Positions 49,870-50,696 of a stretch of 64,000 bases of DNA are shown one piece after another (positions within the stretch are counted from its first letter, which is position 1; each line of letters opens with the position of its first letter). Where the stretch lies: assembly GCF_058153355.1 (NCBI RefSeq), contig NZ_CM177019.1; one strand, given 5' to 3'. A model generated the notes under the pieces. It had not been told where the DNA came from and did not search any database. It saw nothing but the letters and a program-made list of their open reading frames with translations. The position numbers and the translations under genes are program-made.

Positions 49870-50511
49870 TCAATAGCGCAACATGTTGGCTTCCGCTTCG
49901 CGCTGTTTAACTTCCTGCTCGCGCTGCAGTGTTTTCTGGTTCGCCGTGACTTTGGCATTAATGCTGTCGATAACGGTTGGCGGGTACTCCGGCTTACCCA
50001 CATATGAGAGGCTCATTACCTGAATACCGATGGGCGTCATTTCTTCCTGAATGTCTTTAAGAGCTGCATCCAGCAGCTCAGACTTGCCGCCGTCGATAAA
50101 TTTGTCGGTGGTCATTTTGCTGGCCAGTCGGTTGAGTGCGTCGGCGATCTTCTGGCGCAGGTCAGTGTCGGTAATGTCATCCACGCCTTTGCGGTAGGTC
50201 TGAAACACCGTGGTAACTTTGGATGGATCAACTTTGTAGGCCACGCCGATGTGATAGCCGATGGTTGTACCGTCACTCATCTGGAAGCTGAATGGCTCAT
50301 CGTAGGTCTTCATTTGTTTGAAGGTCGGGAAGATGTAAACCTCAGTGTTCCATCCCGTCCAGTAGCGCCCAACACCGACCACCTCTCCGACGCCTTTATC
50401 GTCGCCCAGTTTGTTTACCTTGATGCCAACATTACCAGGCTCAACGCGATCGCAACCGACAAGTCCGGTGGTCAGCAGAACAAGGGCTAAAGCAGGAATA
50501 GCTTTTTTCAT
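49870..50511 (-). CDS. SPFH/band-7-like lipoprotein
   Basis: 213 aa; signal peptide plus lipobox LVGC; HflC/stomatin-like core ending ...QREQEVKQREAEA; start overlaps upstream gene stop (ATGA). Confidence 0.6.
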   Translation of the reverse strand: MKKAIPALALVLLTTGLVGCDRVEPGNVGIKVNKLGDDKGVGEVVGVGRYWTGWNTEVYIFPTFKQMKTYDEPFSFQMSDGTTIGYHIGVAYKVDPSKVTTVFQTYRKGVDDITDTDLRQKIADALNRLASKMTTDKFIDGGKSELLDAALKDIQEEMTPIGIQVMSLSYVGKPEYPPTVIDSINAKVTANQKTLQREQEVKQREAEANMLRY

Positions 50512-50696
50512 CTTTTATCCTTAGTGAAAGAAAGACCCTTATAAATGGCATAAATGCAGGGCGGGGTCAGACACGCCAGAGCAAAGCCAGAAATCACTGC
50601 TACCGTATCCTTCATTGATATGAGGGCCGGAACGATTAATCCGTAAATACATGCGATAATTGCCAGTGATATAACTATTCTGAAATAAATGTTCAT
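50508..50696 (-). CDS. 62-aa two-helix membrane protein translationally coupled to the SPFH lipoprotein
   Basis: MNIYFRIVISLAIIACIYGLIVPALISMKDTVAVISGFALACLTPPCIYAIYKGL...; two hydrophobic segments. Confidence 0.5.
   Translation of the reverse strand: MNIYFRIVISLAIIACIYGLIVPALISMKDTVAVISGFALACLTPPCIYAIYKGLSFTKDKR

Follow-up and report, generated by a model that had tools for sequence, protein, structure and literature searches.

A truncated prophage copy of a conserved two-gene phage module encoding an SPFH lipoprotein and a two-helix membrane protein

Proteins of the SPFH superfamily (stomatin, prohibitin and flotillin as well as HflK/C) occur in all domains of life, and recent electron cryo-microscopy shows that they form membrane cages. 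In the solved cages the long helices make up the wall and the C-terminal segments close the cap. Two Escherichia coli systems serve as points of comparison here: the HflK/HflC–FtsH cage (Protein Data Bank (PDB) entries 7vhp, 7wi3 and 9cz2) and the product of the SPFH–NfeD operon, QmcA–YbbJ (8z5g), which is a cage of 26 heterodimers (PMC13086221). SPFH proteins encoded by phages have been called 'poorly understood' (PMC7760394). We analysed a window of 64,000 nucleotides, one strand of contig NZ_CM177019.1 (assembly GCF_058153355.1; coordinates are window positions unless another sequence is named), which carries a gene for an SPFH lipoprotein and, immediately upstream, a gene for a 62-residue membrane protein, both within a prophage integrated at yecE. 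We read this locus, with a probability of roughly 0.6, as the damaged remains of a membrane module of two genes that is conserved among phages and whose intact form is a cage-building scaffold of early lytic growth.

The two open reading frames (ORFs), described in an earlier note made from the DNA letters, are both present on the minus strand, with 213 and 62 codons (Table 1). Both are preceded by Shine–Dalgarno-like sites (AAGGA and AGGAGG); AAGGA is the ribosome-binding site of the SPFH gene and lies inside the coding sequence of the partner, whose stop codon shares an ATGA with the SPFH start. The SPFH protein begins with a signal peptide and lipobox L-V-G-C, in which Cys20 is followed by Asp (MKKAIPALALVLLTTGLVG/C-DR), and it conforms to the lipoprotein pattern [LVI][ASTVI][GAS]C (MKKAIPALALVLLTTG-LVG-C), the lipidation itself being predicted only. 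Pfam family Band_7 (PF01145) matches residues 22–208 with E=2.6e-31 and is covered over its entire length, and in PHROGs the protein matches phrog_200, 'lipoprotein' (E=1e-87). Two hydrophobic helices make up much of the 62-residue protein, for which PHROGs gives phrog_1130, 'membrane protein' (E=5.6e-24). The Pfam and PHROGs scores of the two proteins are far beyond chance. The earlier note had recognised the SPFH domain from its motifs, the lipobox LVGC, the overlap of start and stop codons with a two-helix protein and the position next to the integrase gene of a prophage; the Band_7 match together with the structural results below, the N-terminal sequence, the ATGA and the location of the pair beside xis and int bear out each of these points.

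Table 1. Features of the SPFH locus and the adjoining prophage genes
Feature	Position	Strand	Description
Partner gene, intact	50508..50696	-	62 aa, two-helix membrane hairpin; from ORF, phrog_1130, hydrophobic segments and family alignment
SPFH/Band 7 lipoprotein gene, truncated	49870..50511	-	213 aa: 212 native codons, then Tyr and a stop made by the deletion
ATGA overlap of partner stop and SPFH start	50508..50511	-	4 nt, read from the sequence
Signal peptide and lipobox	50452..50511	-	L-V-G-C; Cys20 codon at 50452-50454; Asp at +2
SPFH domain, Pfam match to residues 22-208	49888..50448	-	alpha/beta core (model residues 20-175) plus ~30 residues at the start of the long helix
Deletion junction	49875..49881		between 49875 and 49876; GCGCAA microhomology at 49876-49881
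DUF5406 family gene, 3' remnant	49677..49875	-	alignment with AUSMDU00002545 (L001) and phiP27; annotation of AUSMDU00002545
Prophage integrase, split into two ORFs (187 and 262 aa)	47644..48952	-	5-bp deletion between 48426 and 48427

The SPFH gene of the window is incomplete. In phage phiP27 (L05; RefSeq WP_000734577), in Stx2 phages that integrate at yecE and in many E. coli chromosomes the gene has 828 bp and encodes 275 residues, and a length of 275–276 residues is found in 106 of 120 close homologues. Alignment with phiP27 and with E. coli AUSMDU00002545 reveals a 405-bp deletion in the window, which removed the last 63 SPFH codons, a short GC-rich intergenic hairpin and the 5′ part of a DUF5406 family gene. 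Past residue 212 the reading frame therefore continues with a single Tyr before it stops. The 212 residues that remain are 96–97% identical to the phiP27 protein (PHROG 200), and the partner differs from its counterpart in AUSMDU00002545 (PHROG 1130) at two of 62 residues. As in the window, the phiP27 and AUSMDU00002545 copies adjoin xis and int in a phage that integrates at yecE. The exact 213-residue product occurs on only two contigs among about 15 billion proteins and has no NCBI protein record; such rarity points to what is probably a recent lesion rather than a selected form.

We modelled the full-length 275-residue relative with AlphaFold2 as a monomer, using an alignment of 106 diverse sequences. 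The model has a mean predicted local distance difference test score (pLDDT) of 92.9 and consists of an alpha/beta SPFH core (residues 20–175), a single helix of 65 residues (178–242), a short helix (244–254) and an extended tail. Foldseek aligns the whole chain with full-length subunits of SPFH proteins that form cages, namely prohibitin, HflK/C, erlin, stomatin, flotillin and QmcA (E=1e-13 to 1e-8, probability 1.00). When the PDB was searched with the family profile, prohibitin ranked first (1.6e-10), followed by HflK (2.7e-7); with the single sequence, HflK was the best match at an E-value of about 1e-3. Structure prediction for the full-length relative and the search with the family profile both point to the SPFH fold.

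Outside the core, the most conserved positions of the family alignment are W255, G257 and P260, which belong to a KW(N/D)GxLP motif and are invariant or nearly so among the 106 sequences. All three are missing from the window copy. The parts that close SPFH rings, i.e. the long coiled-coil helix and the C-terminal region, are present in the relatives, and the window copy lacks them in complete form. The lipoprotein of 213 residues with a coiled C-terminus that the earlier note described is therefore a real ORF, but its length is not native and its coil is the stump of the 65-residue helix. Because it ends in the middle of this helix and without the KW(N/D)GxLP motif, the truncated product is unlikely to assemble into a cage, and the window copy is most likely non-functional.

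The phiP27 record (AJ298298), Stx2 phage records and the phi1026b record annotate this protein as a 'putative serine protease', and it might accordingly be taken for a membrane serine protease. Pfam finds only Band_7, however, the model is a pure SPFH plus coiled-coil fold, and on re-annotation NCBI has called the protein 'lipoprotein' or 'SPFH domain-containing protein'. We give the protease assignment practically no credence and have rejected it; the label probably derives from the old naming of SPFH proteins as 'membrane protease subunit'.

The integrase gene of the same prophage is also damaged, as judged against relatives that are 97% identical and 5 nt longer and by direct alignment with the 99.5%-identical sequence of E. 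coli FDAARGOS_944. Since the integrase is frameshifted in addition to the SPFH truncation, the element at yecE is a decaying E. coli prophage that carries a damaged SPFH copy; its chromosomal flank (torZ, cmoB, cmoA, yecN, yecE) is 98.9% identical to E. coli. FDAARGOS_944, the closest relative, has copies of the insertion sequence (IS) IS600 that interrupt its integrase gene and its SPFH gene, the latter at the 3′ end (4225–5381 and 7817–8973 of locus L148, matching window positions ~47800 and ~49875). Compared with this strain, the interval absent from the window amounts to the 405 bp plus that second IS600 copy. Identity to FDAARGOS_944 is 99.5% to the left of the deletion junction and 93.9% to its right, and the drop indicates that the junction is also a mosaic boundary, which possibly arose from an IS-associated event.

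We next consider the module in its intact form. Phages of several kinds have a homologous ORF of 60–80 residues with two transmembrane (TM) segments directly upstream of the SPFH gene: P1-like phage-plasmids, P88 (P2-like), Fraca (lambdoid), a Salmonella phage of the T5 type and Burkholderia phage phi1026b. Such ORFs, 31–40% identical, also precede the gene in all four distant metagenomic representatives. In a set of 50 diverse viral loci from IMG/VR (39–59% identical to the query P0155), the SPFH gene of about 43 is directly preceded by a small ORF that contains two or more hydrophobic segments, and a hidden Markov model built from 24 partner sequences recognises 30 of the 51 IMG/VR loci scanned with it. 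A 4-nt overlap is the commonest arrangement (21 of the diverse loci), and most of the other pairs are at most 15 nt apart. An adjacent, co-oriented membrane-protein gene is thus conserved with the SPFH gene in viral loci, metagenomes and cultured phages.

In about 18 of the top 150 cluster representatives, the hairpin, the signal peptide with lipobox and the SPFH domain are joined in a single ORF. Such natural fusions are Rosetta-stone evidence that the hairpin and the SPFH protein work together. The fusion ORFs are metagenomic and encode 320–390 residues (P0153, P0158, P0161, P0166, P0170, P0173, P0175, P0177, P0192, P0195 and others). Its retention upstream in distant phages and its fusion in some genomes strongly support the idea of the earlier note that the 62-residue protein is a genuine partner. 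Neither the pairing nor the fusions appear in any paper found by our literature search.

At the turn that joins the two helices, the partner alignment shows the motif P-x-L-[IV]-S-x-x-[SD]-T, in which the Pro is invariant and the Ser nearly so; the window protein has P23-x3-S27-x-K-D-T. By the positive-inside rule, the hairpin would have an N-in/C-in topology, with the conserved turn at the periplasmic surface. In a single-chain model of the concatenated E. coli pair, for which the natural fusions supplied the alignment, the hairpin is confidently helical, with pLDDT values of 84–94.

The arrangement resembles the QmcA–YbbJ operon in that an SPFH gene shares a transcript with a gene for a small membrane protein, in the fold match to QmcA and in the existence of fusions of the phage pair. 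The earlier note had pointed to the NfeD-type membrane proteins that normally partner SPFH proteins and had called the partner here minimal. Unlike YbbJ, the phage partner has no NfeD/OB domain, for which its 62 residues leave no room (PF01957), and it shows no significant similarity to YbbJ, which appears in the PDB profile search of the partner at E=4.9, a chance-level value. None of the 24 partner sequences matches a Pfam family at E≤0.001, and NfeD is absent among the matches listed up to E=0.1. With support from neither Pfam nor the PDB profile search, we reject the assignment as an NfeD protein, and what is left of the comparison is an analogy. The two systems also differ in orientation: QmcA is on the cytoplasmic side, and for the phage protein the periplasmic side is predicted.

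The two-helix architecture also raised the question of a class II holin. Genes of that kind would be expected in a lysis cassette beside endolysin or spanin genes, whereas the partner gene belongs to the early-left region, with xis and int as neighbours. PHROG 1130 carries no holin annotation, and the partner is found in the early operons of P88 and the P1-like phages (no holin-specific profile was run).

With the HflK/HflC–FtsH cage, the full-length relative shares the SPFH core, the long wall helix and the C-terminal closing region, and its domain is predicted to extend into the periplasm from the inner membrane as it does in HflK/HflC. Sequence identity is only about 16–20%, however, and the anchor is a lipobox signal peptide instead of an N-terminal TM helix. 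Moreover, HflK and HflC are two adjacent SPFH paralogues, whereas the phage locus has a single SPFH gene and a 2-TM hairpin.

These relationships bear on the idea that the phage protein mimics HflK/C or prohibitin and cages or modulates host FtsH from the periplasm, which would alter the turnover of substrates such as CII/CIII-type regulators, LpxC or sigma-32 and thereby bias the lysis–lysogeny decision or aid replication. HflK and prohibitin, each of which works with an AAA protease of the membrane, are indeed the closest solved relatives by sequence and by profile, the phage protein is predicted to face the periplasm as they do, and the authors of a paper on phage CSP3, who speculated that its SPFH protein drives lysogeny, made the same suggestion (PMC10269572). 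Nevertheless, the protein scores 13.6 bits against the HflC equivalog NCBIfam TIGR01932, whose cut-off is 134.4 bits, there is one SPFH gene and no HflK/HflC pair, and homologues exist in archaeal Halorubrum viruses and in virulent phages that have no lysogeny decision to make. We consider FtsH mimicry unlikely as the primary account of the module.

The family is found in many kinds of phage. A tblastn search recovered it in 641 of 50,697 phage records, and the virulent carriers include Demerecviridae, Bruynoghevirus, phiCbK-like phages, Twort-like staphylococcal phages and jumbo phages; the same search also found it in Halorubrum viruses. Among complete E. coli genomes, 724 of 5,426 have a family member, near-equally distributed between chromosomes and plasmids, and a library clustered at 50% identity contains 223 clusters at E≤1e-30.

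In three types of temperate phage the pair is part of an early lytic operon under repressor control and does not make up a self-contained moron. In a P1-like element (L003 2791–3878, compared with P1 NC_005856 70208–70923), it exactly replaces the tciA-tciB-tciC cassette. There it is flanked by the plp/upl region and by trnI-ban and follows, downstream and in the orientation of ban, the ban operator/promoter that C1 controls, which marks the tciABC position as an exchangeable cargo site within the C1-controlled ban operon. In the early operon of P88 the pair is situated between cox and the A gene for replication. The lambdoid phages and the window have it in the leftward early gene string that extends from the repressor region to xis and int, and in the window no promoter-like site was detected just upstream of it. 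The metagenomic neighbours are likewise of early type (RdgC, ERF, RNase_T and DUF1064). Early-operon placement and occurrence in virulent phages together point to expression of the pair during lytic growth rather than from the resting prophage.

This setting also bears on a role in defence. The earlier note had placed the pair in an accessory region where superinfection-exclusion and defence genes are common, and the pair could be cargo expressed by the lysogen, with a scaffold that blocks DNA entry or triggers abortive infection. Phage lipoproteins such as Llp and Cor are exclusion factors. In keeping with such a role, many accessory genes surround the pair in its region close to int and xis, the SPFH gene of PhiSH19 adjoins an annotated superinfection-exclusion gene, the PHROGs category of the partner is 'moron, auxiliary metabolic gene and host takeover', and the cassette moves among unrelated phage backbones. 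Against this, neither protein matches any family of PADLOC-DB 2.0 at E≤0.1, which led us to reject membership in a known defence system; the family is common in strictly virulent phages; the pair sits inside repressor-controlled early operons in P1-like, P2-like and lambdoid phages, with no promoter of its own detected; and the window copy is truncated. The proposal of exclusion or defence cargo thus finds no direct support in our data, and we regard a lysogen-expressed exclusion function as improbable. Exclusion during lytic growth, as with Imm and Sp of T4, is possible.

The membrane location of the SPFH protein can be read from its N-terminus. The residues that follow the lipobox are C-D-R in 94 of 120 close enterobacterial homologues, and the lipobox is kept in most homologues. 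Asp at position +2 is the classical signal that retains lipoproteins in the inner membrane of Enterobacteria and keeps them from Lol sorting. Because of this residue, and because the fusions to a 2-TM hairpin require the inner membrane, we infer that the SPFH domain faces the periplasm from the inner membrane, i.e. that it is on the same side as HflK/C. Some members of the wider family have an uncleaved hydrophobic anchor in place of the lipobox.

A further alternative concerns the truncated protein itself. The 213-residue lipoprotein may still be made and act as a surface or vesicle lipoprotein, for instance as an immunostimulatory virulence factor like Pasteurella multocida PM0222 (Pmorf0222; OAZ06802.1). 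TLR2 activation is generic to bacterial lipoproteins, which lessens the value of this comparison. PM0222 is a prophage-encoded, HflK/C-like protein of 25–35 kDa that was reported to occur in outer-membrane vesicles and to activate TLR1/2, and its deletion attenuated virulence (PMC9872710); it has been studied only as a host-immune agonist and virulence factor. Although signal peptide, lipobox and SPFH core are intact in the window, a lipoprotein with Asp at +2 is expected to stay in the inner membrane, this very truncation product is hardly ever encountered, and PM0222 is likened to our protein on its description as HflK/C-like. A surface role of the truncated protein is therefore very improbable.

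For the intact module, we propose the following mechanism, in which a cage-building scaffold acts early in lytic growth. The 275-residue protein would be exported and lipid-anchored at Cys20, and Asp at +2 would hold it in the inner membrane of Enterobacteria with its SPFH domain in the periplasm, like the domains of HflK/C and the prohibitins. The 65-residue helix and the KW(N/D)GxLP tail are predicted to build a ring or a cage that sits on the cytoplasmic membrane at its outer face. Translated together with the SPFH protein, the 2-TM hairpin would be embedded under this scaffold or next to it, with the Pro/Ser turn exposed at the periplasmic surface of the membrane, and by analogy it may take the membrane-embedded role of the NfeD/YbbJ helices or of the N-terminal helices of HflK/C. 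Most likely, the module acts during lytic growth by walling off or stabilising a patch of the host inner membrane; its target may be proteolysis of the FtsH type, the integrity of the membrane or the timing of lysis, or the entry of DNA. The window copy keeps the SPFH core but has lost half of the wall helix together with the whole closing tail.

Several observations weigh against this reading. First, the literature that we searched contains no experimental data on phage biology for any family member, only speculation, and the timing of expression is deduced from gene order. Second, a few loci lack a 2-TM partner or have an upstream ORF with a single TM segment. Third, the mature SPFH proteins of phiP27-type and P1-like/P88 copies are 95–96% identical, whereas their partners share only 20–25% identity; the signal peptides of the P1-like (L003), P88 (L004) and AUSMDU00002545 copies are 42–55% identical. 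Partner alleles have been swapped onto a nearly constant SPFH body, and this contrast in identity speaks against close co-evolution at an interface. Either the two proteins meet only through the conserved turn and through general features of the membrane, or the specificity of the partner is aimed elsewhere. Fourth, the +2 residue varies in the wider family (S, T, D or G), and in one enterobacterial clade a Tyr stands where the lipobox Cys would be (MGIIGYDRVEPG), which makes lipidation impossible there; an uncleaved anchor is presumed. Lipid anchoring and Lol avoidance are consequently not universal. Finally, the truncated SPFH core of the window could keep some activity. The Tyr clade comprises P0107–P0113 and P0118–P0120, on contigs of about 110 kb, sizes that suggest phage-plasmids.

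The damaged-copy reading can be extended to the family as a whole: the full-length SPFH lipoprotein and the hairpin may form an autonomous, horizontally mobile module, a periplasm-facing cage that serves some end specific to the phage, for example to keep out incoming DNA, to cage FtsH or to maintain an energised membrane up to lysis. We hold this wider view tentatively and at less than even odds. Virulent phages encode members of the same superfamily and of similar length (Kayvirus MbpS, phiCbK gp238, TL gp12 and jumbo-phage proteins), with 24–38% identity by tblastn. They differ in that the Gram-positive versions are TM-anchored and lie in the lysis region, and in that some upstream partners have one or three TM helices. 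For SPFH proteins of phages, help with Sec export of the lytic enzyme (Kayvirus; PMC7150955) and a role in adsorption or DNA entry (PMC13239085) have been speculated upon. The family itself is already catalogued, as PHROGs 200 and 1130, as 'SPFH domain-containing protein' in RefSeq and under the old 'putative serine protease' mislabel. The earlier note had allowed for a well-described phage lipoprotein with known function; what we found instead is a catalogued family for which the literature offers only speculation.

Identity of the pair with plp and upl of phage P1, which border its position in the P1-like element, was considered and rejected, as canonical P1 Plp (125 residues) and Upl (63 residues) are unrelated in sequence. 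CRISPR interference data showing that P1 plp and upl are non-essential (PMC10695390) are therefore not applicable to the SPFH pair. The P1 plp/upl ORFs (L096 9473–10042) have Cys/Arg-rich or non-hydrophobic translations, and plp overlaps a tRNA-Thr gene on the opposite strand; canonical plp and upl do not look like convincing genes.

Two further features were seen in the early-left and immunity regions of the window prophage. A 72-codon ORF on the minus strand (51146–51364) corresponds by position to the gene for a 'ParE family toxin-like protein' in AUSMDU00002545, and a 71-codon ORF on the same strand (51336–51551) lies upstream and overlaps it; the two may be a toxin–antitoxin pair. In the immunity region, a strong terminator-like hairpin with a 15-bp stem (53253–53285, minus strand) separates the two helix-turn-helix genes that run leftward (53290..53676 and 52600..53178).

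To the catalogued family this analysis adds the hairpin as a conserved part of a mobile two-gene phage SPFH module, in which it is often coupled in translation, and sometimes fused, to the SPFH protein; this module differs from the cellular SPFH–NfeD and HflK/C systems. Since the copy in the window is broken, it is a poor test case and should not be counted as prophage defence cargo. The phage version is compact, with one lipid-anchored SPFH protein and one hairpin of 60–80 residues that are sometimes fused, and it is evidently selected in temperate and virulent phages. If the mobile-module view is true, the pair would be a minimal, genetically tractable two-gene SPFH system. A small, clonable and non-cellular module of this kind could be a convenient means of learning how an SPFH cage affects a bacterial membrane.

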